DNA of 64,000 bases. It comes from Betaproteobacteria bacterium (GTDB lineage Bacteria > Pseudomonadota > Gammaproteobacteria > Burkholderiales > CAIKXV01). The translations under genes were made by a program, and so were the position numbers. Positions 7,816 to 49,354 of this stretch are shown here, piece after piece (the stretch's first letter is position 1; the number at the start of each line of letters is the position of its first letter). The stretch spans positions 142,491 through 206,490 of the forward strand of contig CANGYF010000004.1 in assembly GCA_947458265.1 (NCBI GenBank). The letters run 5' to 3'. The notes beneath the pieces were generated by a model. It ran no database searches, was not told the DNA's origin, and worked only from the letters and a program-made list of their open reading frames with translations.

Positions 7816-9258
7816 TCAGGCCGAGAACAGGTCCACGAACTGGTCGACCGGCATCGATTGCAGCTTGCCGGCATCCGCGCAGGCCTCGCGGATCAGCCGC
7901 TGCTGCTTCGGAGCGAAGCGCCGCGCCAGGTTGACCGCAAACTTGGCGTCGAGCAGCGGGTAGCCCTCCGCGCGGCGGCGGCGATGTCCGACCGGGTATT
8001 CGACCTCCACCTGCTGCGTGCTGGTCCCGTCCTTGAAGGTGACCTGCACCGCGTTGGCGATCGAGCGCTTCGCCGGATCGAGGTAGTCGCGGGTGTAGCG
8101 CGGTTCCTCGACGATCTCCATCCGGTCGCGCAGCGCGTCGATCCGCGGGTCCGCGGCCACGCCGTCCTCGTAGTCGGCCGCCACGAGGTTGCCCTTGATG
8201 AGACCGACCGCCGTCATGTACTGGATGCAGTGATCCCGGTCGGCCGGGTTGTGCAACGGCCCCCGCTTGTCGATGATGCGGATCGCCGATTCATGCGTGG
8301 TGATGGTGACCTTCTCGATATCCTCCAGTCGGTGCTTCACCAGCGGATGCAGCACCAGCGCGCATTCGACCGCGGTCTGCGCGTGGAACTCGGCCGGGAA
8401 AGAGATCTTGAACAGCACGTTCTCCATCACGTACGAGCCGAGCGGGCGGCCCAGCACCAGCGGCTGGCCCTTGAACAGCACGTCCTGGAAGCCCCAGGTC
8501 TTCGCGCTGAGCGCGGACGGATAGCCCATCTCGCCGCGCAGCGTCATCCATGCGATGCGCACCGCGCGCGAAGTCGCGTCGCCAGCGGCCCACGACTTGC
8601 GCGACCCGGCGTTCGGTGCGTGGCGGTAGGTGCGCAACGACTGCCCGTCGATCCAGGCGTTCGACACGGCGTCGATGACCTCGTCGCGCGTGCCGCCCAT
8701 CATCGCGGTCACCACCGCTGTCGAGGCCACCTTCACCAGCACGACATGGTCCAGGCCGACGCGGTTGAAGCTGTTCTCCAGCGCCAGCACGCCCTGGATC
8801 TCGTGCGCCTTGATCATCGCGGTGAGCACGTCGCGCACCGTGAGCGGCGCGAGGCCGCGCGCGACCCGCGTACGCGACAGCCAGTCGGCGGTGGCCAGGA
8901 TGCCGCCCAGGTTGTCCGACGGATGGCCCCACTCGGCGGCAAGCCAGGTATCGTTGAAATCGAGCCAGCGGATCATGGTGCCGATGTTGAACGCGGCCTG
9001 GACCGGGTCGAGCTGGTACGGCGTCCCCGGGACCTTCGCGCCGTTCGGAACGACCGTGCCTGGCACGATCGGGCCGAGCAGCTTGGTGCAGGCCGGGTAC
9101 TCCAGCGCCTCCAGGCCGCAGCCCAGGGTGTCGAGCAGGCAGTAGCGGGCGGTGTCGTAGGCCTCGGTGCTGTCGACCTGCGTCGACAGCACGTAGTCGG
9201 CGATATCGACCAGCAGCGCGTCGGGTTCGGGGCGGATGTTGGAGATCGGAGCGGACAT
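7816..9258 (-). CDS. prpD: 2-methylcitrate dehydratase (PrpD)
   Basis: 480 aa. The N-terminal '[14 protein letters not shown]' block and '[18 protein letters not shown]' are characteristic of PrpD proper. Confidence 0.9.
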
Positions 9259-9360
9259 GTGGGCAGTGCCGGTGGGTTGTACGGGGCTTGCAGGGGAGTG
9301 GGAGGTGGGTTGGCTGGGTGTCGACCAGCGGCGCTGGTCAGGCGCGGCCAGCGGGGTGCT

Positions 9361-10530
9361 TCAGCGCTCGTCGATCGGCACCCAGCGCACGCCTTCCGGC
9401 CCGGTGTAGTTGGCCGTCGGGCGGATGATCTTGCCGTCGATGCGCTGCTCGATCACATGCGCGGCCCAGCCGGAGGTGCGCGAGACCACGAACAGCGGGG
9501 TGAACATCGCGGTTGGTACGCCCATCATGTGGTACGAGACCGCGCTGAACCAGTCCAGGTTCGGGAACATCCGCTTCTCGCGCCACATCACGGCTTCCAG
9601 GCGCTCGGCGATATCGAACAGCTTCATCGACCCTGCGCGCTGCGAGAGGCGGCGTGCGACCTCCTTGATCACCACGTTCCGCGGGTCTCCGGTGGTGTAG
9701 ACGGGATGGCCGAAGCCGATCACCACCTCCTTGGCCTGCACCCGGCGCACGATGTCGGCTTCCGCCTCGTCGGGCGTGGCATAGCGCGACTGGATCTCGA
9801 AGGCCACCTCGTTCGCGCCGCCGTGCTTGGGTCCGCGCAGCGCGGCAATGCCGCCGCAGATCGCCCCATGCATGTCGGCACCGGTGCCGGCGACCACTCG
9901 GCAGGCGAAGGTCGAGGCGTTGAATTCGTGTTCCGCGTACAGGATCAGCGACGTGTTCATCGCCCGTACCCACTCGGCTGGCGGAGCCTCGCCATGCAGC
10001 AGGTGCAGGAAATGGCCACCGATGGATTCGTCGTCGGTGTCGACGTCGATGCGCTTTCCGTTGTGCGACCAGTGGTACCAGTAGAGCAGCATCGAGCCGA
10101 AGCTGGCCATGAACCGGTCCGCGATCTCGCGCGCGCCGGCGGTGCCGTGGTCGTCCTTCTCCGGCAGCAGCGCGCCCAGCGCCGAGGCGCCGGTGCGCAT
10201 CACGTCCATCGGATGGGCCGACGGCGGCAGGCGCTCGAGCAGCGCCTTCAGCGGTGCGGGCAGCCCGCGCAGCGCACGCAGGCTGCGCTTGTAGCGATCG
10301 AGTTCAGCACGGTCGGGCAGGCGTTCGTGCACCAGCAAGTGCGCGATCTCCTCGAATTCGGCGCTGTCGGCGAACTCCATGATGTCGTAGCCGCGGTAGT
10401 GCAGGTCGTTGCCGGAGCGTCCGACGGTGCACAGCGCGGTGTTGCCCGCCGTGATGCCGGACAGGGCAACCGACTTCTTGGGCTTGAACGGTACGGGTGA
10501 TGGCGGTATGCCCGCGGGGGTGTCGCTCAT
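9361..10530 (-). CDS. prpC: citrate synthase family protein, 2-methylcitrate synthase-like (PrpC-like)
   Basis: 389 aa short-type citrate synthase with 'GFGHPVY' and '[11 protein letters not shown]' catalytic His contexts. RBS GAGGAGG precedes the ATG. It lies immediately upstream of prpD on the same strand. Confidence 0.82.
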
Positions 10531-10556
10531 TTCGAATCCTCCTCTGGCAGCAGACG

Positions 10557-10584
10557 AAAAAACGGCCGCTTCGCTGGCGGCCGT
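10557..10584 (-). terminator. Rho-independent terminator downstream of mdh
   Basis: On the minus strand the sequence reads ACGGCCGC-CAGCGAA-GCGGCCGT followed by TTTTTT. It sits about 30 nt after the mdh stop. Confidence 0.75.
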
Positions 10585-10615
10585 CCTTCGATCAACGGGC
10601 GTCGCGCCTGCCGGT

Positions 10616-11605
10616 TCAACCGAGCAGGTGCTTGACGCCGTCGCGCTCTTCCTCGAGTTCCTTCTGGGTGGCCTGCATCTTCGACCGGCTGAAGTCGGAG
10701 ATATCGATGCCCTTGACGATCGAGTACTGGCCGTCCTTGCAGGTAACCGGGAAGCCGTACATCAGTCCTTCCGGGATGCCGTAGCTGCCGTCCGACGGGA
10801 TGCCCATCGACACCCAGTCGCCGTCGGGCGTGCCGTTGACCCAGTTGCGCACATGGTCCATCGCCGCGTTGGCCGCACTGGCCGCCGAGGACAGGCCGCG
10901 CGCATCGATGATCGCCGCGCCGCGCTTCTGGATGGTCGGGATGAAGTTCGACTCGAGCCACTGCTGGTCGTTGATCATCGGCCACGCCGGCTTGCCATCG
11001 ACCTCCGCGCGGAACACGTCCGGGTACTGGGTGGCCGAGTGGTTGCCCCAGATGGTCATCTTCTTCACGCTGCTGACCGGACGGCCGACCTTCTGGGCGA
11101 TCTGGGTCAGCGCACGGTTGTGGTCGAGCCGCATCATCGCGGTGAACTGGGTCGGTTTCAGGCTGGGCGCGTTCTTCATCGCGATCAGCGCGTTCGTGTT
11201 CGCCGGGTTGCCTACCACCAGGACCTTCACGTCGCGGCTGGCGAACTCGTCGAGCGCACGGCCCTGGGGCCCGAAGATCTTGCCGTTGGCTTCCAGCAGG
11301 TCCTTGCGCTCCATGCCCGGGCCGCGCGGGCGCGCGCCGACCAGAAGGGCCACGTTGGCATCGCGGAAGGCGACTTTCGGGTCGTCGGTCGGTGCCACGG
11401 ACTGCAGCAGCGGGAACGCGCAGTCGTCGAGTTCCATGATGACGCCGCGCAGGGCCTTCTGGGCCTTTTCGTCGGGGATCTCGAGCAGTTGCAGGATCAC
11501 CGGCTGGTCTGCGCCGAGCATCTCGCCGCTGGCGATGCGAAACAGCAGGCTGTAGCCGATCTGGCCGGCGGCGCCGGTGACGGCGACGCGAACGGGCGAT
11601 TTCAT
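10616..11605 (-). CDS. mdh: malate dehydrogenase (NAD-dependent, LDH-like family)
   Basis: 329 aa from ATG 11605 (RBS AAGGGAG). It has the N-terminal Rossmann motif [12 protein letters not shown] and the WGNHS motif. The 658-aa track ORF is an upstream extension with no homology signal. Confidence 0.95.
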
Positions 11606-38630: not shown

Positions 38631-39614
38631 ATGCCGAGAATCGATGTATTGACGTTTCGGGGCGTTGCCGTAGCGCTGCTGGTGGCAGCGCTGCCGGCGG
38701 CGCCCGTGCATGCACAGGCATGGCCGTCGAAGGCGGTGCGCATGATTGTTCCGTTCCCGCCGGGCGGTTCGACCGACATCTTCGGTCGGCTGATGGCCGA
38801 GGCACTGACCCGGCAACTGGGCGTGCAGGTCGTGGTCGACAATCGCGGCGGTGCAGGCGGCAACATCGGCGCCGCGCTCGCGGCCCGCGCGCCGGCCGAC
38901 GGCTACACGATCTCGATGTTCACGGTCGCGCAGAGCATTGCCCCTTCCGTGATGAAGCTCGACTTCGACCCGGCGAAGGATTTCACCCCGATCACGCTGA
39001 TCGCGCGCCTGCCCAGCATCCTGCTCGTGCATCCGTCCCTGCCGGTGCGCAACGTGAAGGAGTTGCTGGCACTGATGAAGAAGCGGCCGGGCGCGCTCAA
39101 CTATGCATCGACCGGTCCGGGTACCTCGCCGCACATGCTGATGGAAATGTTCCTGCTGATGTCCGGCACCAAGGCGACGCACATCGCCTACAAGGGGGCG
39201 AGTCCGGCGATGGTCGACCAGCTGGGCGGGATGGTCGAGATGGGCTTCACCACCGGCATCGGGCCTTCCCTCGAGGCTGCGCGCAACGGCAAGCTGCGCG
39301 CGATCGCGGTGTCTACCGCCGAGCGCTACGCCGCACTGCCGAACGTGCCGACGGTGGCCGAGGGCGGCGTGCCCGGCTTCGATGGCAGCTCCTGGCAGGG
39401 GCTGGTGGCGCCGGCGGGCCTCCCGAAGGACATCCTGGCACGGCTGAGCGGCGAGGCGGTCAAGTGGATCCAGTCTCCCGAAGGGCGGGAGCGGATCGCG
39501 CAGCAGGGTGGCAATCCCGGCGGCAATTCGCCCGAGGCCTTCGGGCAGTTCATCCAGGAAGAGATCGCGCGCTGGGCGAAGGTGGCCAGGGCGGCGAACG
39601 TGCGTACCAATTGA
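38631..39614 (+). CDS. Bug-family (TctC-like) substrate-binding protein
   Basis: 327 aa from ATG 38631 (RBS GGAGGAG). The signal peptide ends AQA|WPSK and is followed by 'VPFPPGGSTD'. Confidence 0.9.
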   Translation: MPRIDVLTFRGVAVALLVAALPAAPVHAQAWPSKAVRMIVPFPPGGSTDIFGRLMAEALTRQLGVQVVVDNRGGAGGNIGAALAARAPADGYTISMFTVAQSIAPSVMKLDFDPAKDFTPITLIARLPSILLVHPSLPVRNVKELLALMKKRPGALNYASTGPGTSPHMLMEMFLLMSGTKATHIAYKGASPAMVDQLGGMVEMGFTTGIGPSLEAARNGKLRAIAVSTAERYAALPNVPTVAEGGVPGFDGSSWQGLVAPAGLPKDILARLSGEAVKWIQSPEGRERIAQQGGNPGGNSPEAFGQFIQEEIARWAKVARAANVRTN

Positions 39615-39669
39615 CTGGGGCGTCGCCTCTGCCTGCCGCGCGTGCGGCAGGCCACCAGGCGGCCTGCCG

Positions 39670-40926
39670 GTGAGGTTCGCCTCGGTTGCGTTCCGCGCAC
39701 TGCGCCACCGCAACTACGCCCTGTTCTTCGCCGGCCAGGGCCTGTCCATGGTCGGCTACTGGGTGCAGCAGGTGGCAGCCGGCTGGCTGATGTACGAACT
39801 GACGCAGTCGGCTTTCTCGCTCGGGCTGCTGGCTTTCTTCTCGAACCTGCCCGTGCTGCTGCTCTCGCCGCTGGCCGGGTGGTGGTCGGACCACGCGGAC
39901 CGGCGCCGGCTGATGCTCGCTTCGCAGGTGCTGCAGGGCTTGCAGGCGCTGGTGCTGGTGGTGCTCACGGTGAGCGGGCTTATCCAGCCCTGGCACCTCA
40001 TGGTGCTCGGCGCCATCCTGGGTGCCCTGGTGGCGCTGGAACTCGCGGTACGCCAGACCTTCCTGCTCGACCTGATCGATGTGCGAGAGGACCTGCCGAG
40101 TGCGATCTCGCTCACCGCCACGATGGGGCAGGCGGGCCGGCTGGTGGGACCGGCCATCGCGGGTGCGCTGCTGGTCGCGGTCGGACCCGCCTGGTGCTTC
40201 GCCGCCAATGCGCTGTGCTACGTGGTGGTCGTGGGCAGCATCGTGGCCATCCGCACGCCGCCGCAGGCGCCATCGGCCACGCGCGGGTCGTTCATCGAGG
40301 GCCTGCGCGAAGGCTTCGCCTACGCCTGGAATTCGTACCCGATCCGCAACCTGCTGGTTGCGCTGGCGCTGGTGAGCGTGCTGGTGACGCCCTACCAGAA
40401 CCTGATGCCGGCCTTCGTCGCGCAGGTCCATGCCGGTGACCCGAAGATGCTCGGGATGCTGCTCGCCCTGGCCGGCGGCGGCGCCCTGGCCGGCAGCCTG
40501 TACCTCGCGGCGCGGCCCAACGCAGGCGGGTTGCTGAACGTGCTGATCGCCGCGATGGCAACCGCCGGGCTCGGCCTGCTGGCCTTCGCGCTGAGCGACC
40601 GCTGGTGGCTGTCCGCGCCGCTGGTGGTGCTGGTCGGGCTGGGAGTGCTCGCCACGACGCTGCCGGTGCAACTGATCATGCAGACACTGGTGGACGACGA
40701 CAAGCGCGGCCGGGTGATGAGCCTGTCGACCATGCTCTTCATGGGCGTCGGTCCGATCGGGAACCTGCTGGCGGGCAGCATCGCCGAGGCGATCGGCCCC
40801 AGGCTGGCGCTCGCGCTCAACGGCGCAGTGTGCGCCGTCGCCGCGGTCTGGCTGTTCTCGCGGCGCGCCCGGATGCGCGCCGCGATGCGGCCGACCGTCG
40901 AGCGCCTCGGCATCCGTTCGCCTTGA
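39670..40926 (+). CDS. MFS transporter (EntS/MFS_3-like)
   Basis: Its GTG start at 39670 is the first plausible start upstream of 'FRALRHRNYALFFAGQGLSMVGYW'. It has about 12 hydrophobic segments and the loop 'WSDHADRRRLM'. Confidence 0.8.
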   Translation: MRFASVAFRALRHRNYALFFAGQGLSMVGYWVQQVAAGWLMYELTQSAFSLGLLAFFSNLPVLLLSPLAGWWSDHADRRRLMLASQVLQGLQALVLVVLTVSGLIQPWHLMVLGAILGALVALELAVRQTFLLDLIDVREDLPSAISLTATMGQAGRLVGPAIAGALLVAVGPAWCFAANALCYVVVVGSIVAIRTPPQAPSATRGSFIEGLREGFAYAWNSYPIRNLLVALALVSVLVTPYQNLMPAFVAQVHAGDPKMLGMLLALAGGGALAGSLYLAARPNAGGLLNVLIAAMATAGLGLLAFALSDRWWLSAPLVVLVGLGVLATTLPVQLIMQTLVDDDKRGRVMSLSTMLFMGVGPIGNLLAGSIAEAIGPRLALALNGAVCAVAAVWLFSRRARMRAAMRPTVERLGIRSP

Positions 40927-40957
40927 TGACCCTGCCGACTTTGGTACCCTAGGCCCC

Positions 40958-42349
40958 ATGGCACTCCCTGCACCCGCCCTCCGTGCGCACTGGAACCGGC
41001 TGCGCGTCCGTTCGCTGTCGCCGCGCGACCTGCTGGCGGTCGGGCTGCCGGCGCTGCTTCTGCTGGCTGGTGCGTTCTGGTTCGCGTCGCGCTTCATCCA
41101 GCCAGCTCCGCCCGGCTCTCTCGTGATGGCCACTGGCAGCGTCGAAGGTGCCTACCACCACTATGCAGAGCGCTACCGGGACATCCTTGCGCGCAAGGGG
41201 TTCGACCTTCGGCTGCGTCCGTCCGACGGCTCGGCCGAGAACCTCGAACTGCTCGATGGCCGTGCTGAAACCATCGATGTCGCATTCGTGCAGGGCGGGC
41301 TGGGCGCCCCGGAGAAGTCACCGTCGCTGGTGTCGCTCGGCAGCCTCTATCATGAGCCGCTGTGGGTCTTCCATAGATTGCCCGAGGACATCTCGCGCCT
41401 GTCCGACCTGCACGGCAAGCGCGTCGCCATCGGCCCCGAAGGCAGTGGCACGCGGCCGCTGGCGCTGCAACTGCTGCTCGCGAACGGGCTGGGGCCCGGG
41501 CAGGTGCGTCTGTCGGGGCTCACCGGCAAGGCTGCGGTCGAGGCCCTGCGCAGCGGGAAGGTCGATGCGCTGATGATGATCGCGGCGCCCGAGGCCGGCT
41601 ACATCGCCGAGTTGCTGCGCGATCCCGGTGTGCGCCTGATGAGCTTCGTCCAGGCCGACGCCTACACGAAGAAGTTCCTGTTCCTGTCGAAGGTCGTGCT
41701 GCCGCGCGGTTCGATCGACCTGGTGCGCGACCTTCCGCGCCAGGACGTGGCTCTGGTCGCGCCCACCGCGCAACTGGTCGCGCGCGCGGACCTGCATCCG
41801 ACGCTGCAGACGCTGCTGCTTCAGGCTGCGGCGCAAGTCCATGGTGGCGCCGGCCTGTTCCAGGCGGCGCGCGAGTTTCCGTCCGGTCAGCAGCAGGATT
41901 TCCCGCTCAGCCCTGAAGCGGAGCGCTTCCATCGTGGCGGGCTGCCGTTCCTGCAGCGCATCTTTCCGTTGTGGCTGGCGATCCTGATCGAGCGGCTGTG
42001 GGTGATGGTGCTGCCGCTGGTGGCAGTGGCGATCCCGCTGTCGCGCATCATCCCGCCGCTCTACAACTGGCGTATCCGCCGGCGCATCCTGAAGCTTTAT
42101 GGCGAACTGCGGCTGCTCGAGTACGACATCCGCTCGAACTTCGATGCATCCAGGGCCGTCGAGTACGAACAGAAGATCGATGCCCTCGAGGTCGCCGCCT
42201 ACACGCGGCCGATCCCGCTCGGCTTCACCGACCAGGTCTACCTGCTGCGCCAGCACATCAACCTCGCGCGCGAGACGCTGCGCCAGATGAGCGGCGGCGC
42301 GGCGTCGCGGCCGGCATTGCCGCCGGCCACCGGCAAGGCCGGAGCCTGA
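40958..42349 (+). CDS. TAXI-family TRAP-type solute receptor-like protein with N- and C-terminal membrane segments
   Basis: 463 aa. An N-terminal TM segment is followed by 'MATGSVEGAYHHYAERY' and 'VDVAFVQGG', a TAXI-like core. The C-terminus has a TM pair and a charged helical tail. Confidence 0.72.
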   Translation: MALPAPALRAHWNRLRVRSLSPRDLLAVGLPALLLLAGAFWFASRFIQPAPPGSLVMATGSVEGAYHHYAERYRDILARKGFDLRLRPSDGSAENLELLDGRAETIDVAFVQGGLGAPEKSPSLVSLGSLYHEPLWVFHRLPEDISRLSDLHGKRVAIGPEGSGTRPLALQLLLANGLGPGQVRLSGLTGKAAVEALRSGKVDALMMIAAPEAGYIAELLRDPGVRLMSFVQADAYTKKFLFLSKVVLPRGSIDLVRDLPRQDVALVAPTAQLVARADLHPTLQTLLLQAAAQVHGGAGLFQAAREFPSGQQQDFPLSPEAERFHRGGLPFLQRIFPLWLAILIERLWVMVLPLVAVAIPLSRIIPPLYNWRIRRRILKLYGELRLLEYDIRSNFDASRAVEYEQKIDALEVAAYTRPIPLGFTDQVYLLRQHINLARETLRQMSGGAASRPALPPATGKAGA

Positions 42350-42352
42350 TCG

Positions 42353-43750
42353 ATGTCACATGAAGCGGGCGGCGACAACCGCTACACCCGGGGCATCGCT
42401 GAGTTCGTCTCCGGGTTGCGTTACGAGGACGTTCCGCCCGAGGTGCTGGCGCGGATCAAGCTGCTGATGCTCGATTCGCTCGGCTGCGCACTGTACGGCG
42501 CCGACCTCGAGTGGAGCCGCATCCTGCAGCGCATGCTGTCGGTGGTCGATGCCACGCGTACCTGCCCGGTCTGGGGCACCGACCAGCGCCTTTCTGCCCC
42601 GCATGCGGCCCTGGTCAATGGCACGCAGGTACAGGGCTTCGAACTCGACGACGTTCACCGCGCCGGCGTGCTGCATGTCGGCGCCGTCGTGCTGCCGGCG
42701 CTGATCGCCGTGGCGCAGATGCGCCCCGGCATGACCGGTCGCGAGTTCCTGGCCGCGGCGGTGGCCGGCTACGAGGTCGGCCCGCGCGTCGGGCTGTGCA
42801 TGGGCCCGGAGCACATCGCCCAGGGCTGGCATTCGGGTGCGACCCTCGGTGTGTTTTCGGCAGCCGCCGGCGCGGCGCGCGGCCTTGGCCTCGATGCCGA
42901 CCGGACCGTGCATGCCCTGGGCATCGCCGGCACCCAGGCCGCCGGCCTGATGGCCGCGCAGTACGGTGCGATGGTCAAGCGGGTGCATGCTGGCCGTTCG
43001 TCGCAGAGCGGCCTCTACGGTGCGCTGTTCGCGCGCGAGGGCCTGACCGGCATCGTCAACGTGCTCGAGAGCGAGTACGGCGGCTACTGCACGACCTTCT
43101 CGCGCTCGACCGACCGCTTCAACCTGTCGGAGCTCACTGCCGGGTTCGGAACCACGTGGCAGACCATGGGCGTCGCGCTGAAGTTCTATTCCTGCGTCGG
43201 CAGCAACCACACGACGCTGGATGCGATCCGCGACATGCAGGCCGAGCGTGCGTTCGGTGCCGAGGAGGTCGACCGCATCCTGGTGCACGGCTCGCAGGTG
43301 ACGATGGACCATGTCGGCTGGAAGTACGTGCCGCAGGGGCTGACCTCAGCCCAGTTGAACCTGCCGTACTGCGTGGCGACCTGGCTGCTCGAGGGCGACT
43401 GCTTTGTCGACCAGTTCACTGACGACAAGGTGGCCGACCCGGAGCGCATGCGCATCGCGCAGAAGGTCGCCGTGCAGCATGACGACGTGATCACCGCCAA
43501 GGGCGCGAAGTACCGGCACGAGGTCAGGGTCGAACTCTGGCTGAAGGATGGCACCCGCTTCGAACGCCGGGTCGAGTCGGCGCGCGGCAGCGAGTACCGC
43601 TTCGCCTCGGATGCCGACGTGGTCGAGAAGTTCGGCAAGCTGGCGTCCAAGGCGCTGCCGCCGCGCAAGGTCGAGGCCCTGCGCGATGCGATCCTCGGTC
43701 TCGACACGCTGGCCGACGCCTCCACCCTCGGCGAACTGCTCGTCCGGTGA
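42353..43750 (+). CDS. MmgE/PrpD-family protein (not PrpD proper)
   Basis: 465 aa with 'LMLDSLGCALYG', 'NGTQVQGFELDDVH' and 'GWHSGATLGVF' blocks. It starts 4 nt after the preceding stop. Confidence 0.88.
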   Translation: MSHEAGGDNRYTRGIAEFVSGLRYEDVPPEVLARIKLLMLDSLGCALYGADLEWSRILQRMLSVVDATRTCPVWGTDQRLSAPHAALVNGTQVQGFELDDVHRAGVLHVGAVVLPALIAVAQMRPGMTGREFLAAAVAGYEVGPRVGLCMGPEHIAQGWHSGATLGVFSAAAGAARGLGLDADRTVHALGIAGTQAAGLMAAQYGAMVKRVHAGRSSQSGLYGALFAREGLTGIVNVLESEYGGYCTTFSRSTDRFNLSELTAGFGTTWQTMGVALKFYSCVGSNHTTLDAIRDMQAERAFGAEEVDRILVHGSQVTMDHVGWKYVPQGLTSAQLNLPYCVATWLLEGDCFVDQFTDDKVADPERMRIAQKVAVQHDDVITAKGAKYRHEVRVELWLKDGTRFERRVESARGSEYRFASDADVVEKFGKLASKALPPRKVEALRDAILGLDTLADASTLGELLVR

Positions 43751-44002
43751 GTCTCGCGCCGGAGGCGAGATTACAGACTGCGGCGCGCGTGCTGGCCGGG
43801 TACGCTGCCGGCATCACATGCGCGGCGGACGAAAGCCCACGGAGACCAACTTGAATGACATGAAGGCACCGGCCGCAGTCGGCCAGTCACCGCTGACCCC
43901 GCCCCAGGTGCGGGCGATGTATCCGGGCGCGCTTTGGTGTCGGATCGAGCGGATGCAGGCGCTGTGCAGCGAATGGACCGGCGCGCGCGCGTCGGCGGTC
44001 CC

Positions 44003-44920
44003 ATGAGTTTCGATGTGATCGTGGTGGGCGAGGGCATTGCCGGCCTGGCCACGGCGCGCGACTGTGCGCGGGCCGGCCTGCGCACCGGTACTGTCGAGCA
44101 GTTGATGTTCGGTGGGCTGGTGACCTCGATCAACGAGCTGGTCGACTGGCCTGCCGAGGGCGGCGACCCCTGCTCCGGCAGCGACGTGGCGACGAACTGG
44201 ATCACCGAGGCGGCCGATGCCGGGGTCGAGAGCCTGGGCGGCTGCGCGATCGGGCTGGCGAGCGCACCGGGCGGCCTGCTGCTGCACACCGATGCCGGCA
44301 GCCACGAGGCGCGCTGCGTGGTCGTGGCCTCCGGCGCGTCGCGCCGGCCGCTGGGCATCGCCGGGGAGGAAGACTACGCCGAGCGCGGCCTGTCGCATTG
44401 TGCCGACTGCGATGGCCCGCTGGTCAAGGGGGCCGACGTGGTGGTGGTCGGCGGTGGCGACAGTGCGCTGCAGGAGGCCGCGGTGCTGGCGCACTATGCG
44501 CGCACGGTACATGTCGTGCACCGGGGCAGCGCGTTTCGCGCGCGGCCGTCGGTGCGCGCGCTCTTCGAGCGCGCCTTCGAGGGCCGGCCCGATGCACTGC
44601 AGGTACACTGGCAATCGACGGTGTCGGCCATTGAAGGTGCCGGTGGCGTCGAGGCGGTCATCGTCGACGGGCCGTCCGGTGCGTCGCGGCTGCCGGTGCG
44701 CGCGGTGTATCCCTGCGTCGGCCTGGTGCCCAACAGCGGCTGGACCGGCCTGGCCACCGATGCGCAGGGTGCAATCGTCACCGATGACAGGCTGGCGGCG
44801 TCGTTGTCTGGAGTGTTCGCCGTCGGTGCGGTGCGCGCTGGCCATGGTGGTCGGCTGATCGACGCGGTAGCCGATGGCGCACTGGCCGCGAAGTCCGTGA
44901 AGGAGGCATTGCAATGCTGA
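44003..44920 (+). CDS. thioredoxin-reductase-like FAD/NAD(P)H disulfide oxidoreductase
   Basis: 305 aa from ATG 44003. It has the FAD fold 'VIVVGEGIAGL', a redox pair 'SHCADCDG' (canonical TrxB is CATCDG), 'VVVVGGGDSALQEA' and 'HRGSAFRA'. Confidence 0.85.
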   Translation: MSFDVIVVGEGIAGLATARDCARAGLRTGTVEQLMFGGLVTSINELVDWPAEGGDPCSGSDVATNWITEAADAGVESLGGCAIGLASAPGGLLLHTDAGSHEARCVVVASGASRRPLGIAGEEDYAERGLSHCADCDGPLVKGADVVVVGGGDSALQEAAVLAHYARTVHVVHRGSAFRARPSVRALFERAFEGRPDALQVHWQSTVSAIEGAGGVEAVIVDGPSGASRLPVRAVYPCVGLVPNSGWTGLATDAQGAIVTDDRLAASLSGVFAVGAVRAGHGGRLIDAVADGALAAKSVKEALQC

Positions 44921-45585
44921 AGCTCTGGGGAAGGCTCACGTCCAACCGCACGCAGAAGGTGCTGTGGACGCTGGCCGAGGTCGGCATCGAGTTCGAGATG
45001 ATCCTCGCCAGCGGCGTGATGGGTGCCGGCGGCCATGTCGCGAAGGGCAACAAGCCGTTCGGCCTGGTCGACACACCGGAGTACCGCGCGCTCAACCCGA
45101 ACGGGCGAATCCCGACGATCGACGACGACGGCTACGTGCTCTGGGAGTCGAACGCGATCTGCCGCTATCTGGTGATGCAGTACGCACCGGAGGCGATGTA
45201 CGGCAACGACGTGCGCACCTTCGCCTCGGCGACCCGCTGGCAGGATTTTGAGAACAACGAGCTGCTGCCGCCGCAGCACGAACTGGTGATGGAGCTGGTG
45301 CGCCTGCCGCCGGAGCAGCGCAGCGCCGACAACCTGGCCAAGGCCCGTGCCGCGTTCAACAAGCGGCTGGAGATCATCGAGGCACAGCTCGCGCGCACCC
45401 GCTACATGGTCGGCGACCGGTTCACGTTCGGCGACATCCCGATCGGCATCCGGGTGCATCGCTGGGTGCTGCTCGAGGCCGAGCGTCCGCGGTTTCCGAA
45501 CATCGAGCGCTGGTATGCCTCGCTGATCGAGCGGCCTGCCTTCCAGCGCTTCAGCGCAGACCCGGCCAACCATGTCGAGGGGTGA
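44914..45585 (+). CDS. glutathione S-transferase family protein
   Basis: 223 aa with the N-terminal thioredoxin-like part 'NPNGRIPTIDDDGYVLWESNAICRYL'. It overlaps the preceding gene by 7 nt. Confidence 0.9.
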   Translation: MLKLWGRLTSNRTQKVLWTLAEVGIEFEMILASGVMGAGGHVAKGNKPFGLVDTPEYRALNPNGRIPTIDDDGYVLWESNAICRYLVMQYAPEAMYGNDVRTFASATRWQDFENNELLPPQHELVMELVRLPPEQRSADNLAKARAAFNKRLEIIEAQLARTRYMVGDRFTFGDIPIGIRVHRWVLLEAERPRFPNIERWYASLIERPAFQRFSADPANHVEG

Positions 45586-45690
45586 TTGCGCCGGGGACGT
45601 CGGGGACGCACGCCCGTGCCTGCAATAGGTAAACTCCGGCCATCCTGAGCCGGCCCGTGAAGCCGGCGCACCATGGCCCCGGAGGACTTG

Positions 45691-46710
45691 ATGGACCGAT
45701 TCGATACCCCCACGCGCCCAGCCGCGCACACGCCTGCCACATCGACGCTGGCACTGACCCTGGCACTGGCCGCGTCTGCCGCGGCGATGCTCCCCGTCGG
45801 CGCGGCTGCCCAGGCACAGGCCTGGCCGGTCAAGCCGGTGCGGGTGATCTTCCCCTATCCCCCTGGCGGCGGCACCGACGCGGTCGGGCGCATCGCGACC
45901 AACGCGCTCACCGAGCAGCTCGGGCAGACCTTCATCGTCGATACCCGGCCTGGTGCCAGCGGCCAGATCGGCACCGAGGTCGCCAGCAAGTCGCCGGCCG
46001 ACGGCTACACGCTGGTCCTGGGCAACGTCGCGCCGCTGGCGATCCTGCCGGCGTCCAACCCGAAGCTGCCCTACGATCCGCTGCGTGACCTGGCTCCGAT
46101 CAGCCTGATCGCCACCTCCGATTACATCCTCACCGTGCACCCGTCGCTGCCGGTGAAGAACCTGAGTGACCTGCTCGCGCTCGCGAAGAAGCGCCCGGGC
46201 GAACTCAGCTTCGCCTCCAGCGGCGCGCTGGGCGGGCCGCACCTGGCGGGCGAACTGCTGAACCTGCTCGGTGGCGTCAACATGCTGCATGTGCCCTACA
46301 AGGGCAATGGCCCGGCGGTGGTCGCCGTGCTGTCTGGCGAGGCGACGATGCTCTATGGCACCGGGCCAGCCGTGGTTCCATTCGCGCAGCAGGGCAGGAT
46401 GCGCATCATCGCCACCACCGGCCTCACGCGCACGATCAAGGACGTGCCGGCGATCGCCGAGCAGATCAAGGACTTCCAGGTCACCCAGTGGTACGGGCTG
46501 CTGGCGCCCGCGGGTACGCCGCGCGAGATCATCGACCGCCTGGCGAAGGAGACCGCGCGCGCCGTGGCCGATCCGAAGAATGCGGCGGCGCTGGTGAAGC
46601 TCGGCGCCGATCCCATGACGAACAGCCCCGCCGACTTCCGGCGCTTCATCGAGGGCGAGATCGCGCGTTACACCAAGGTGGTGAAGGCGGCCAAGCTGAC
46701 CGCGCAATGA
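45691..46710 (+). CDS. Bug-family (TctC-like) substrate-binding protein
   Basis: 339 aa from ATG 45691 (RBS GGAGGA 4 nt upstream; ATG 45673 is an alternative). The signal ends AQA|WPVKP and is followed by 'FPYPPGGGTD'. Confidence 0.9.
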   Translation: MDRFDTPTRPAAHTPATSTLALTLALAASAAAMLPVGAAAQAQAWPVKPVRVIFPYPPGGGTDAVGRIATNALTEQLGQTFIVDTRPGASGQIGTEVASKSPADGYTLVLGNVAPLAILPASNPKLPYDPLRDLAPISLIATSDYILTVHPSLPVKNLSDLLALAKKRPGELSFASSGALGGPHLAGELLNLLGGVNMLHVPYKGNGPAVVAVLSGEATMLYGTGPAVVPFAQQGRMRIIATTGLTRTIKDVPAIAEQIKDFQVTQWYGLLAPAGTPREIIDRLAKETARAVADPKNAAALVKLGADPMTNSPADFRRFIEGEIARYTKVVKAAKLTAQ

Positions 46711-47735
46711 GTGGCGGGCAGGACCTCGACCCGTTCGAGTTCTTCTTCGACAAGCCGTGGAGTGACGGCCTGCCGGTGGTGACACCGACGCAGGAGCGGC
46801 TCGACTGGATGCTCGGTGGCACCCGGCGCGATCCGACCGAGGTGGTCGGGCCGGTGCCCCCGGCGATGAACGTCGCCACCGTGCGCGATGTCGCACTGCA
46901 TGCGGTGATGGCCGGCTGCCGCCCCGACTACCTGCCGGTGGTGCTCGGCGGCCTCGCGCTGATCCTGCAGGAGCCGTTCAACATGAACGGCGTGCAGGGC
47001 ACGATGCATGGCGTCGCACCGCTGATGATCGTCAACGGGCCGTACGCGGCGAAGATCGGGCTGCACGGCGGCAACGGTTGCCTCGGGCCGGGCTTTCGCG
47101 CGAACGCCACCATCGGCCGCGCGATCCGTCTGCTGCTGCTCAACCTCGGCGGCGGCATCCCGGGCCTGGCTTCGGCCACCGTGCTGTCGACGCCGCAGCG
47201 CTACACCGCCTGCTGGACCGAGAACACCGAGCGCAGCCCGTGGGAGACGCTTGCCGTGTCGCGCGGCTACCGCGCGGACGAAGACGTGATCACCTGCGCC
47301 ATGGTCGAGAGCCCGCGCCTGTGCTACGACGACGTGAGTCAGGAGCCCGTACGCCTGCTCACCGGCATCGCCGACACGATGGCTGCGATGAGCAGCTGGA
47401 ACATGCACGTCCGCTCCGACATGGTGGTGGTGATGGGGCCCGAGCAGGCAACGGTCTGCGATCGCGCCGGCTGGCCTCGAGCGCGGGTGCATGAATGGCT
47501 GGTCGCCAACGCCGGCATGAAGGTGGTGGACATGCGCCGCGGCGGCAACTGGCGCGACGAGCGGGCACGGAAGATCGGTGTCGATCCGTCGGACGACGCT
47601 GCGTTCGTGCCGGTGATCAAGGACGCGCGCGACCTGCACCTGATGGTTGCGGGAGGGTGGGGTCCCGTGAGCGCGGTGGCGCATGGCTGGGGCGGCGGCA
47701 GCCGCGCGGTGCAGGGCACCTACCGCACGGATTGA
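46707..47735 (+). CDS. conserved protein of unrecognised family, paralog A (342 aa)
   Basis: ATG 46707 overlaps the Bug stop (ATGA). The coding signal is strong, with high third-position GC. About two thirds of positions are identical by eye to the next gene. I can name no domain. Confidence 0.8.
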   Translation: MSGGQDLDPFEFFFDKPWSDGLPVVTPTQERLDWMLGGTRRDPTEVVGPVPPAMNVATVRDVALHAVMAGCRPDYLPVVLGGLALILQEPFNMNGVQGTMHGVAPLMIVNGPYAAKIGLHGGNGCLGPGFRANATIGRAIRLLLLNLGGGIPGLASATVLSTPQRYTACWTENTERSPWETLAVSRGYRADEDVITCAMVESPRLCYDDVSQEPVRLLTGIADTMAAMSSWNMHVRSDMVVVMGPEQATVCDRAGWPRARVHEWLVANAGMKVVDMRRGGNWRDERARKIGVDPSDDAAFVPVIKDARDLHLMVAGGWGPVSAVAHGWGGGSRAVQGTYRTD

Positions 47736-47778
47736 CGTGCAGCACCATTGGCGGGGATGACCGCAGGGAAGGGATGCA

Positions 47779-48798
47779 GTGATCGACGAGTTCGAATTCT
47801 TCCTCGAGAAGCCGTGGTCGGACGGGCTTCCGGTGGTGACACCGACCGAGGCGCGGCTGGCCCCCTTCCTGGCGGCAGCCGGGCGCGACCCGGACGAGCC
47901 GATCGGCCGCGTGCCGCCAGCGATGGAGCCGGTCACGGTGCGTATCGCTGCGATCCATGCGCTGATGGCCGGCTGCCGTCCCGAGTACCTGCCGGTCGTG
48001 CTCGGCGCGCTGCCGCTGGTCCTGCGCGACGAGTTCAACCTGAACGGCGTGCAGGGCACGATGCATGGCGTGGCACCCCTGATGATCGTCAACGGCCCGC
48101 ATGCGGCGAAGATCGGGCTCAATGGCGGCAACGGCTGCTTCGGCCCCGGTTTTCGCGCCAACGCGACCATCGGCCGTGCGATCCGGCTGATGCTGCTCAA
48201 CCTCGGCGGCGGCATGGCCGGCATCGCCTCGGCCACCATCTTCGCGACGCCGATGCGCTACACCGCGTGCCTCACCGAGAACGTCGCACGCAGCCCGTGG
48301 GATAGCCTCGCTGCCTCGAAAGGCTACGCGGCTGGCGATGACGTGATCACCTGCGCGATGGTCGAGAGCCCGCGCCTGCACTTCGACGACGTGAGCCAGG
48401 AGCCCGAGCGCCTGCTGACCGGCATCGCCGACGGCATGACTGCGCTCGGTTCATGGAACATGCATGCCCGCTCGGACATGGTGGTCGCCATGGGTCCGCA
48501 GCATGCGACGATCTGCGCGCAGGCCGGCATGAGTCGCGAAGACGTGCACCGCTGGCTGGTCGAACACGCCGGGCGTACGGTCGGCGACCTCAAGCGTGGC
48601 GGTAACTGGCGGCGCGAGCGTGCGCTGCAGTTCCCGATCAAGGTCGACCCCGACGACGATACCTGCTTCATCCCGACGCTGAAGGATCCGGTCGACCTGC
48701 AACTGATCGTCGCCGGTGGCTGGGGTCCATGCACCGCGATCTGCCATGGCTGGAGCGGCGGCAGCCGTGCGGTGCATGGCACCTATGCCGTCCGATGA
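47779..48798 (+). CDS. conserved protein of unrecognised family, paralog B (339 aa)
   Basis: GTG start at 47779 follows GGGAAGGGA. It shares blocks with paralog A: KPWSDGLPVVTPT, NGVQGTMHGVAPLMIVNGP, GGNGC(L/F)GPGFRANATIGRAIRL, DVITCAMVESPRL, GGWGP..HGW(G/S)GGSRAV. Confidence 0.8.
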   Translation: MIDEFEFFLEKPWSDGLPVVTPTEARLAPFLAAAGRDPDEPIGRVPPAMEPVTVRIAAIHALMAGCRPEYLPVVLGALPLVLRDEFNLNGVQGTMHGVAPLMIVNGPHAAKIGLNGGNGCFGPGFRANATIGRAIRLMLLNLGGGMAGIASATIFATPMRYTACLTENVARSPWDSLAASKGYAAGDDVITCAMVESPRLHFDDVSQEPERLLTGIADGMTALGSWNMHARSDMVVAMGPQHATICAQAGMSREDVHRWLVEHAGRTVGDLKRGGNWRRERALQFPIKVDPDDDTCFIPTLKDPVDLQLIVAGGWGPCTAICHGWSGGSRAVHGTYAVR

Positions 48799-48826
48799 AC
48801 CGAACACCCCTGGAAGGAAAGCAACC

Positions 48827-49354
48827 ATGAACGAACTGCCCTTCATCGACCCGACCGCGGGCGGCAACCGTCCGCCGGTCGCCCTCGCACCGCGTCCGAT
48901 GGATCTCGCCGGCAAGGTCGTGGCGATGATCGACAACACCAAGGAGCAGGGCAGCCTGATCCTCGAGACGGTCGCCCAGGTGCTGCGCGAACGCCATGGC
49001 GTCGCCAAGGTGATCATCCGGCGCAAGGAGCACTACTCCAAACCGGCCACCGACCAGCTGATCGACGAACTCGCGCAGGAGGCCCACCTGGCCGTCGCTG
49101 CCGTGGGTGGGTGAGGGTCCTGCACGTTGTGCAGTGTGCACGACACCGTGGAATTCGAGAAACGCGGCATCCCCGCGACCGTCATCATCACGCAGGCCTT
49201 CCGCAATGCCTGCATCTTCCAGTTCCGGTCCAAGGGCATGGCCGGCCATCCGTACATCGAGCTGCCGCATCCGATCAGCAACATGACCGAAGACGAAATG
49301 CGCGAAGTGACGCTGAAGGAAGTCGATGCGCTGGTGAAGCAGCTGGTCGCCTGA
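48827..49354 (+). CDS. candidate selenoprotein with U-G-S-C-T-L-C motif (in-frame TGA at 49112-49114 read as Sec, codon 96 of 175)
   Basis: ATG 48827 lies 8 nt after GGAAGGA. Track ORFs 48716..49114 and 49127..49354 are in the same frame and separated only by TGA plus four sense codons. The downstream part lacks an ATG and an RBS. A hairpin follows the TGA directly. Confidence 0.78.
49117..49144 (+). promoter_or_regulatory. SECIS-like hairpin immediately 3' of the in-frame UGA
   Basis: GUC-C-UGCAC (49117-49125) pairs with GUGCA-C-GAC (49136-49144), giving 8 Watson-Crick pairs and one C.C mismatch. The stem can extend by G.U, U.G and U-A pairs to a GUGC tetraloop at 49129-49132. The hairpin starts 3 nt after the UGA. 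Confidence 0.45.

Follow-up and report, generated by a model that had tools for sequence, protein, structure and literature searches.

What four tightly packed genes for a small selenoprotein, two paralogous proteins without a family name and a periplasmic solute receptor do together is the question raised by a 64,000-nucleotide stretch of contig CANGYF010000004.1 from a Burkholderiales bacterium (hereafter the window). All four open reading frames (ORFs) are present on the plus strand at the coordinates first reported (Table 1). The TGA stop of the Bug/TctC-family receptor gene (46708-46710) overlaps the ATG of paralog A (46707-46709) in an ATGA; A and paralog B are 43 nt apart, and 28 nt separate B from the selenoprotein gene. 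Purine-rich stretches that resemble ribosome-binding sites precede the starts of the Bug, B and selenoprotein genes. A preliminary description, made from the sequence alone, had read the genes as one unit and proposed an uncharacterized selenium-dependent system. The overlap and spacing that it reported are confirmed from the sequence, and its proposal overall is partly supported. The two paralogs belong to a large unnamed family, given the working name P, and P is the usual partner of the UGSC family of selenoproteins, encoded beside it or fused to it, in most of the sampled genomes across many phyla.

The UGSC selenoprotein and its recoded UGA

With selenocysteine (Sec, U) replaced by cysteine, the translation of the small gene scored 133.5 bits against the NCBIfam model NF041046, "UGSC family (seleno)protein" (cut-off 125), and 162.4 bits against Pfam PF24696 (cut-off 25, E = 1.5e-47). 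Both matches run across both sides of the TGA, which stands in the context AAVGG-U-GSC-TLC-SVHD and gives the motif U96-G-S-C99-T-L-C102. By these profile matches the protein is a full member of a catalogued family and not a new family, and the preliminary description erred in counting it as part of an uncharacterized set. The earliest mention of UGSC dates from 2007 and presents a selenoprotein whose function was not known (PMC1976440). In 2008 it was listed with the selenoprotein families of highest abundance in the Global Ocean Sampling data and as the family most often used in non-marine aquatic samples (PMC2398784), and it still appears with no assigned function in reviews from 2022 and 2026 (PMC9312934, PMC13188914). 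A Sec-dependent reductive enzyme in an aerobic betaproteobacterium had been thought unusual; a Sec protein of the UGSC family in such a host is ordinary, with homologues in Burkholderiales, Chloroflexota, Rokubacteria, Binatia, Actinomycetota and others.

Of the 70 species-representative loci with a UGSC gene, 68 have homologues in which the TGA occupies the same alignment column, and the distinct gene copies with it number 73 in all. Two archaeal homologues (Natrialba and a Methanobacterium metagenome-assembled genome, MAG) have TGC or TGT in this column, and the fused and actinobacterial forms of UGSC carry Cys there. RNA folding places a hairpin 11 nt after the UGA, with an 8-bp stem (49126-49133 paired with 49137-49144) and a GUG apical loop (49134-49136). 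With its distance of 11 nt from the UGA and a G-U in its apical loop, the hairpin matches the Sec insertion sequence (SECIS) of Escherichia coli fdhF in geometry. The loop is of the type GUN, and across 71 sequences 87% of the alignment cells in the stem are paired. Changes on both sides occur in 26 cells compared with 6.2 under shuffling, and the covariation seen is attained by 0 of 500 shuffles. A synonymous GTG/GTC switch, matched by TGC/TGG in the opposite arm, accounts for part of it. At one pair, 53 sequences have C-G and 17 have G-C. The hairpin is missing from the Cys-form Methanobacterium gene. Rfam, which may lack a model for a SECIS of this type, gave no SECIS family match even at E ≤ 10. 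The 64-kb window, the part of the genome that was searched, contains neither tRNA-Sec nor sel genes. The conservation of the TGA together with the features of the locus is far above chance. The alignment and the covarying hairpin indicate that the UGA at 49112-49114 is read as Sec, and by these signals the small gene is a genuine selenoprotein gene as first described. Gene callers cut UGSC homologues into products of 96 aa and 72-75 aa; breaking the Sec gene up in this way, with one ORF of 95-96 aa and another of 72-75 aa, amounts to a systematic mis-annotation.

A set of 26 diverse UGSC sequences was compared with the profile libraries, and all 26 match NF041046. The recurrent secondary matches were to GrdB (TIGR01917, 12 sequences), GrdF (7), the general family model (6), PrdB (4) and GrdH (4), and no other family recurred. 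The best secondary match had E = 1.6e-4 and the aligned GrdB profile positions were ~322-409 of 431, around the Sec position. These matches lend weak support to UGSC as a remote relative of the Sec-bearing region of GrdB/PrdB, and not as a member of that family.

Family P and its pairing with UGSC

BLASTP aligned A and B with 70% identity over 335 residues (E = 2e-177). The two proteins are thus true paralogs, as proposed at the outset, and it likewise stands that they cannot be assigned to a family: neither has a Pfam or NCBIfam match even at E ≤ 10. A Pfam search with 62 diverse P members at E ≤ 10 gave no meaningful match either, including none to a Grd or Prd model. The family is large, with at least 6986 homologues of A at E ≤ 1e-3 among the scored candidates and, in a library clustered at 50% identity, 4573 clusters at E ≤ 1e-3 and 959 at E ≤ 1e-30. 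The best 120 P matches are 72-94% identical. All full-length members whose names were seen are called "hypothetical protein". Neither the P family nor an obligate link between it and UGSC is described in any paper that a literature search turned up, except that a 2008 paper mentions a UGSC fusion to a domain called 'Unknown_1', which may be P (PMC2398784). One 174-aa partial sequence (P0274), labeled 'UGSC family (seleno)protein, partial' by NCBI, sits inside the 90%-identity P cluster of P0015, perhaps as a piece of a fusion or through an artefact of the clustering.

TGA-read-through translations of 80 species-representative genome loci were searched with hidden Markov models (HMMs) for P and UGSC. 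The hosts belong to Burkholderiales, Chloroflexota/Dehalococcoidia, Rokubacteria/Methylomirabilota, Binatia, Pseudomonadales, Acidimicrobiia and Alphaproteobacteria, and include a haloarchaeon and a methanogen MAG. A same-strand UGSC lies within 1.2 kb for 75 of the 88 P domains, so that the co-occurrence profiling suggested in the preliminary description was strongly positive. UGSC is downstream of P in 53 cases and upstream in 22, with a median gap between HMM envelopes of 76 nt. The remaining 13 P domains comprise 5 on truncated contigs, 4 extra tandem copies and 4 at loci without an adjacent UGSC. The UGSC proteins encoded downstream of P nearly always have U-G-S-C-T-x-C-S, and those encoded upstream mostly have U-G-S-C-T-S-W-S, without the third Cys. 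Gene order and motif together define two UGSC subfamilies, and natural P/UGSC fusions follow the same two orders as the separate genes. Among the best 150 P representatives, 63 are of unusual length and 36 of these contain a UGSC domain. The fusions include full Cys-form UGSC-P proteins, P-UGSC proteins in which the called ORF ends at the Sec codon and ORFs that start just after the Sec codon. In one metagenomic relative (L001) a fatty-acid desaturase gene (9021-9851) separates the P pair from UGSC, which is followed by a fatty-acid hydroxylase gene (10432-11196), a setting quite unlike the TctC-linked one.

The AlphaFold2 model of a natural UGSC-P fusion of 533 residues has a mean local confidence (pLDDT) of 94.4 and a predicted template modeling (TM) score (pTM) of 0.93, and its two domains are therefore predicted to pack together confidently. 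The UGSC part of the model consists of five β-α repeat units, and the C/U-G-S-C motif is located where strand 3 ends and helix 3 begins. Its neighbors in the PDB are flavodoxin-like proteins such as MsuE, flavodoxin and WrbA, with probabilities up to 1.0 and TM scores by target of 0.45-0.58. UGSC is thus predicted to have a flavodoxin-like α/β fold. The thioredoxin-like fold proposed in 2008 (PMC2398784) is not borne out by the model.

Across sequences 31-94% identical to A, the P residues D20, G70, G137, R138 and E172 are invariant and C71, C169, N133, P23, P27, T28 and W179 are conserved in at least 90%; C71 and C169 are the only two conserved cysteines. The AlphaFold2 model of A (pLDDT 94.7, pTM 0.92) gave only weak Foldseek matches in the PDB, with TM scores of at most 0.28, to class I fumarate hydratase, cyanuric acid hydrolase and PurM-like proteins. 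The class I fumarate hydratases were the best of these (E = 7e-4, TM 0.25-0.28). A fumarase/tartrate dehydratase identity was tried with hhalign and rejected: the P profile had 0.16% probability against E. coli FumA and TtdA, and UGSC had below 0.2% against E. coli TtdB. Sequence searches of the PDB with the P and UGSC profiles returned noise only.

A neighbor-joining tree separates A and B into orthologous clades, both of which are kept in the window and in L001, L004, L005, L085 and L087, and double-P tandem proteins of ~710 aa are present elsewhere in the family. The retention of both clades and the existence of the tandem proteins suggest two P subunits that work together, with A and B forming a putative heteromer with one UGSC.

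Proposed redox chemistry, probable substrate and rival readings

Besides UGSC, P is fused to AhpC/TSA or thioredoxin-like domains with C-P-T-C or C-E-T-C motifs, to short NifU-like C-terminal domains with CxxC and, in P0228, to a flavoprotein that resembles thioredoxin reductase (TrxR) and has a C-A-V-C motif. By their sequences these fusion partners are all thiol-redox modules. Similar genes adjoin the pair in cultured strains. In Rhodococcus wratislaviensis (L092, 3132-6884) a LysR gene is next to P, Cys-form UGSC and a NifU-like gene with overlapping reading frames, followed by TrxR and thioredoxin. Planotetraspora mira (L093, 4948-6845) has LysR next to the same overlapping P-UGSC(Cys)-NifU-like genes, and the Cys-form P-UGSC pair of Paralcaligenes ureilyticus (L090, 4869-6564) is next to LysR with a YeeE-type sulfur transporter and a rhodanese alongside. 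A glutaredoxin-TrxR fusion directly follows UGSC in L050. A thiol/selenol-dependent enzyme is favored because the fusion partners of P and its operon neighbors handle thiol-disulfide electrons. On balance we lean toward reading the locus as a multi-subunit thiol/selenol-dependent enzyme with a solute receptor, for which an imported carboxylate is the probable substrate. What the analysis shows comprises gene structure, Sec recoding signals, family memberships, co-occurrence, fusions and predicted folds.

From these data we infer complex formation, redox chemistry, an electron donor and a substrate class along the following lines. The A/B heteromer would probably bind and transform the substrate by means of the conserved residues D20, C71, R138, C169 and E172. 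Sec96 and Cys99 of UGSC (U-x-x-C) are predicted to sit at the start of a helix right after a β-strand. The UGSC selenol would either attack the substrate bound to A/B, acting as the nucleophile does in GrdB/PrdB, or reduce a C71-C169 disulfide that arises from turnover. Either route would leave a selenenyl-sulfide between Sec96 and Cys99, and a thioredoxin/TrxR-type or glutathione system would re-reduce the Se-S bond. Genes for a TrxR-like protein and a glutathione S-transferase (GST) are located just upstream of the unit.

The evidence on the substrate comes from the Burkholderiales. The Bug receptor scored 208.7 bits against PF03401 (cut-off 27), covering profile positions 2-273 of 274, and its Ala-rich N-terminus has the appearance of a signal peptide. 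The TctC-A-B-UGSC order is kept in L004, L005 and L085-L089, and MmgE/PrpD adjoins the module in L007, L010, L068 and L085-L089 and is three genes upstream in the window. In L009 and L015 three P/UGSC pairs each are interleaved with several TctC genes. The translational coupling to TctC and the frequent MmgE/PrpD neighbor indicate that the substrate in this locus is probably an imported organic (poly)carboxylate. The Bug/TctC link is limited to Betaproteobacteria, so the organic acid that the preliminary description deduced from the receptor is plausible for the Burkholderiales clade only and cannot define the substrate of the family in general. No TctA/TctB membrane partners are found among the neighboring genes in the window, as is usual for many 'orphan' Bug receptors of Burkholderiales.

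Beyond this locus, we put forward tentatively that P and UGSC may constitute an unrecognized selenoenzyme class, in which a catalytic subunit of novel fold and a dedicated flavodoxin-fold Sec subunit of GrdB/PrdB stock would, in freshwater, soil and marine bacteria exposed to oxygen, convert small organic acids in a thiol/selenol-driven and probably reductive reaction.

Several observations weigh against these proposals. No activity, cofactor or substrate is on record for P or UGSC, and P has no detectable homology to characterized families, its catalytic role being deduced only from conservation and fusions. UGSC scores 15-19 bits against the GrdB/PrdB models, where the cut-offs are 65-800 (TIGR01918, TIGR01917, TIGR04483), and so falls short of membership. 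Four loci (L012, L044, L046 and L064) hold P without an adjacent UGSC; they have neither UGSC nor an obvious CxxC partner within about 1.7 kb of P, and the partner may be encoded elsewhere or P may work alone. TrxR-like genes adjoin the module in few loci only. Outside Betaproteobacteria the neighbors are heterogeneous, with no common transporter or third enzyme, and the 148 nearest neighbors of the 80 loci include no conserved third partner (the commonest are TctC, 7; NHL, 5; SDR, 4; and Pyr_redox_2, 4). Burkholderiales also have so many Bug genes that chance alone should place some of them beside the module.

If the receptor and MmgE/PrpD are incidental neighbors, P and UGSC might be a general antioxidant or repair reductase for an oxidized metabolite or protein side chain, comparable to a methionine sulfoxide reductase or a peroxiredoxin with a dedicated redoxin. 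The heterogeneous neighborhoods across phyla fit such a role, as do the fusions to peroxiredoxin-like, thioredoxin-like and TrxR-like modules, the very high conservation within clades seen in the best 120 P matches and the wide spread of the family, with UGSC among the most abundant selenoproteins in aquatic metagenomes (PMC2398784). We nevertheless regard it as unlikely. The ATGA overlap couples the Bug gene to paralog A, the TctC-A-B-UGSC order is kept in several genomes and LysR regulators adjoin the module in the cultured strains. The multiple divergent P/UGSC pairs among TctC genes within 17 kb (L009, L015) look like catabolic diversification.

The weak fumarate hydratase matches of P raise a different possibility, in which the Cys/Sec motifs bind a metal or an Fe-S cluster, P is a cluster-dependent hydro-lyase-like enzyme acting on di- or tricarboxylates, and UGSC and the NifU-like proteins provide ligands or deliver or repair the cluster. 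In the window protein the U-x-x-C-x-x-C spacing is like that of a cluster-binding motif, NifU-like CxxC proteins occur as fusion partners or neighbors, and a carboxylate receptor and MmgE/PrpD are part of the genomic context. The low TM scores and the hhalign probabilities, all below 0.2% for P against FumA/TtdA and UGSC against TtdB, make this reading improbable, as do the two conserved Cys in P compared with the three cluster ligands of class I hydro-lyases and the Trp that replaces the third Cys of the motif throughout one UGSC subfamily.

It is still less probable that P is not an enzyme and instead handles UGSC, selenium or sulfur, for example as a carrier or as a maturation protein. The YeeE-type transporter and rhodanese beside the pair in Paralcaligenes would suit that function. 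The fold matches to selenophosphate synthetase and other PurM-like proteins point the same way and are very weak (E ≥ 0.02, TM about 0.1-0.15). Against it, Cys-form organisms retain P although no selenium is involved, P has double the size of UGSC, and its conserved polar residues (Asp/Arg/Glu/Cys) make up a set such as active sites typically have. That the TGA at 49112 is a true stop, with independent small proteins of 95 aa (96 aa in relatives) before it and 75 aa after it, is very improbable, since the split calls in homologues and the lack of tRNA-Sec and sel genes in the window are outweighed by a single HMM that spans both halves, Cys at the Sec column in archaeal, actinobacterial and fused forms, a conserved SECIS-like hairpin with compensatory changes and a curated NCBI model named (seleno)protein.

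The locus in the window and among known systems

The genes of the proposed thiol/selenol-dependent enzyme stand at the end of a longer series. Nine co-directional genes occupy 39508-49354 of the plus strand and encode an MFS transporter, a TAXI/NMT1-like binding protein, MmgE/PrpD, the TrxR-like protein, GST, TctC, A, B and UGSC. Several gaps in this block are very short or overlapping, and the transcription unit may therefore exceed four genes. The TrxR-like stop overlaps the GST start by 7 nt, and this co-directional pair is ~100 nt upstream of Bug. The TrxR-like ORF opens at a TTG (43934) with a likely start at ATG 44003; its product scored 189 bits against TIGR01292, under the cut-off of 343, and shares 37% identity with the TrxR-like half of P0228, the P-TrxR fusion. 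Elsewhere the GST gene is syntenic only in L005 (GST-TctC-A-B-UGSC) and a TrxR-like gene occurs only in L050, and both were kept as context. The Bug gene has an alternative in-frame ATG upstream at 45673. Other neighbors in the window are a methyltransferase and a Usp gene. Long antisense ORFs across the region are the usual by-product of high G+C.

Table 1. Features of the four-gene unit and its upstream context in the window
Feature	Coordinates	Strand	Evidence
MmgE/PrpD-family protein (context)	42353..43750	+	Pfam MmgE_PrpD_N, MmgE_PrpD_C
Divergent TrxR-like flavoprotein, C-A-D-C motif (context, possibly linked)	44003..44920	+	Pfam Pyr_redox_2, 3.3e-31
GST-family gene, directly upstream of Bug (context)	44914..45585	+	Pfam GST_N, GST_C
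Bug/TctC-family periplasmic solute receptor	45691..46710	+	Pfam PF03401 TctC, E 1.6e-61
Paralog A, 342 aa, family P (working name for a large unnamed family)	46707..47735	+	Family search and conservation
Paralog B, 339 aa, GTG start, family P	47779..48798	+	BLASTP against A
UGSC-family selenoprotein gene, 175 codons	48827..49354	+	NF041046, PF24696
UGA (TGA) codon 96, read as Sec	49112..49114	+	Conserved alignment column
SECIS-like hairpin	49126..49144	+	RNA fold and covariation

Two minor signals fall within the paralog genes. A terminator-like hairpin with a T-rich tail at 46725-46739 lies within the first 30 codons of A; sites of this kind number 3 in the scan compared with 1.6 expected, and this one is likely due to chance. 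In B, positions 48646-48684 (residues 290-302, D-D-T-C-F-I-P-T) scored 15.8 bits against the NCBIfam 'CFI-box putative sorting motif' (cut-off 15.9), a match that is probably fortuitous because A has A-A-F-V-P-V at the same place.

The pairing turns an orphan selenoprotein into a concrete, testable two-component enzyme hypothesis with defined residues, a plausible electron supply and, in Burkholderiales, a candidate substrate class. Rhodococcus wratislaviensis, Planotetraspora mira and Paralcaligenes ureilyticus are cultured, selenium-independent models of the Cys form. An unrecognized selenoenzyme class, if true, would supply a function both for an orphan selenoprotein family that ranks among the most abundant in aquatic metagenomes and for an unnamed family of more than 4500 clusters.

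Selenoprotein B of the glycine/sarcosine/betaine reductases and of D-proline reductase (GrdB, GrdF, GrdH, PrdB) was the system to which the preliminary description likened the locus. The window UGSC has the same kind of Sec motif, U-x-x-C(-x-x-C), although the third Cys is Trp in the UGSC subfamily encoded upstream of P. As in those enzymes, the Sec subunit would work with larger partner proteins, and genes of the thioredoxin system are found in or near some P/UGSC operons. The likeness holds to the extent of the weak matches of UGSC to the Sec region of GrdB/PrdB and fails for A and B, which have no detectable similarity to the pyruvoyl proproteins GrdE/PrdA or to GrdB. UGSC lacks the first ~250 or more residues of GrdB. 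No GrdA-like second selenoprotein, protein C genes, grdA/grdC/grdD or prdC-F were found among the window neighbors or the 148 neighbors elsewhere. Grd/Prd hosts are fermenting anaerobes, whereas P/UGSC hosts include many lineages generally regarded as aerobic. For A and B the Grd/Prd architecture would be at best an analogy.

The catabolic clusters linked to Bug/TctC in Bordetella and other Burkholderiales resemble the locus in that a TctC receptor gene comes first and is coupled in translation to genes that encode cytoplasmic enzymes, with MmgE/PrpD, CoA-transferase III and LysR as typical neighbors. The difference is that the downstream enzymes here are an uncharacterized selenoenzyme module and the cluster has no TctA/TctB. 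Thiol-dependent reductases that use redoxins, such as MsrA/B-Trx fusions and AhpC/AhpF, offer a further, functional analogy, in which a catalytic domain is recurrently fused to CxxC/UxxC modules and a TrxR-like flavoprotein. P is unrelated to these enzymes in sequence or fold, and the redoxin here is predicted to be flavodoxin-like and not to have a thioredoxin fold. From this comparison we infer a Sec-dependent two-part reductase-like enzyme with an unrecognized catalytic partner. As a protein, the window UGSC is in no way different from its family (NF041046, PF24696). What goes beyond the searchable UGSC literature is the near-constant pairing with one large unnamed family, the predicted flavodoxin-like fold in place of a thioredoxin-like one, and the duplicated P partner and TctC receptor in Burkholderiales.

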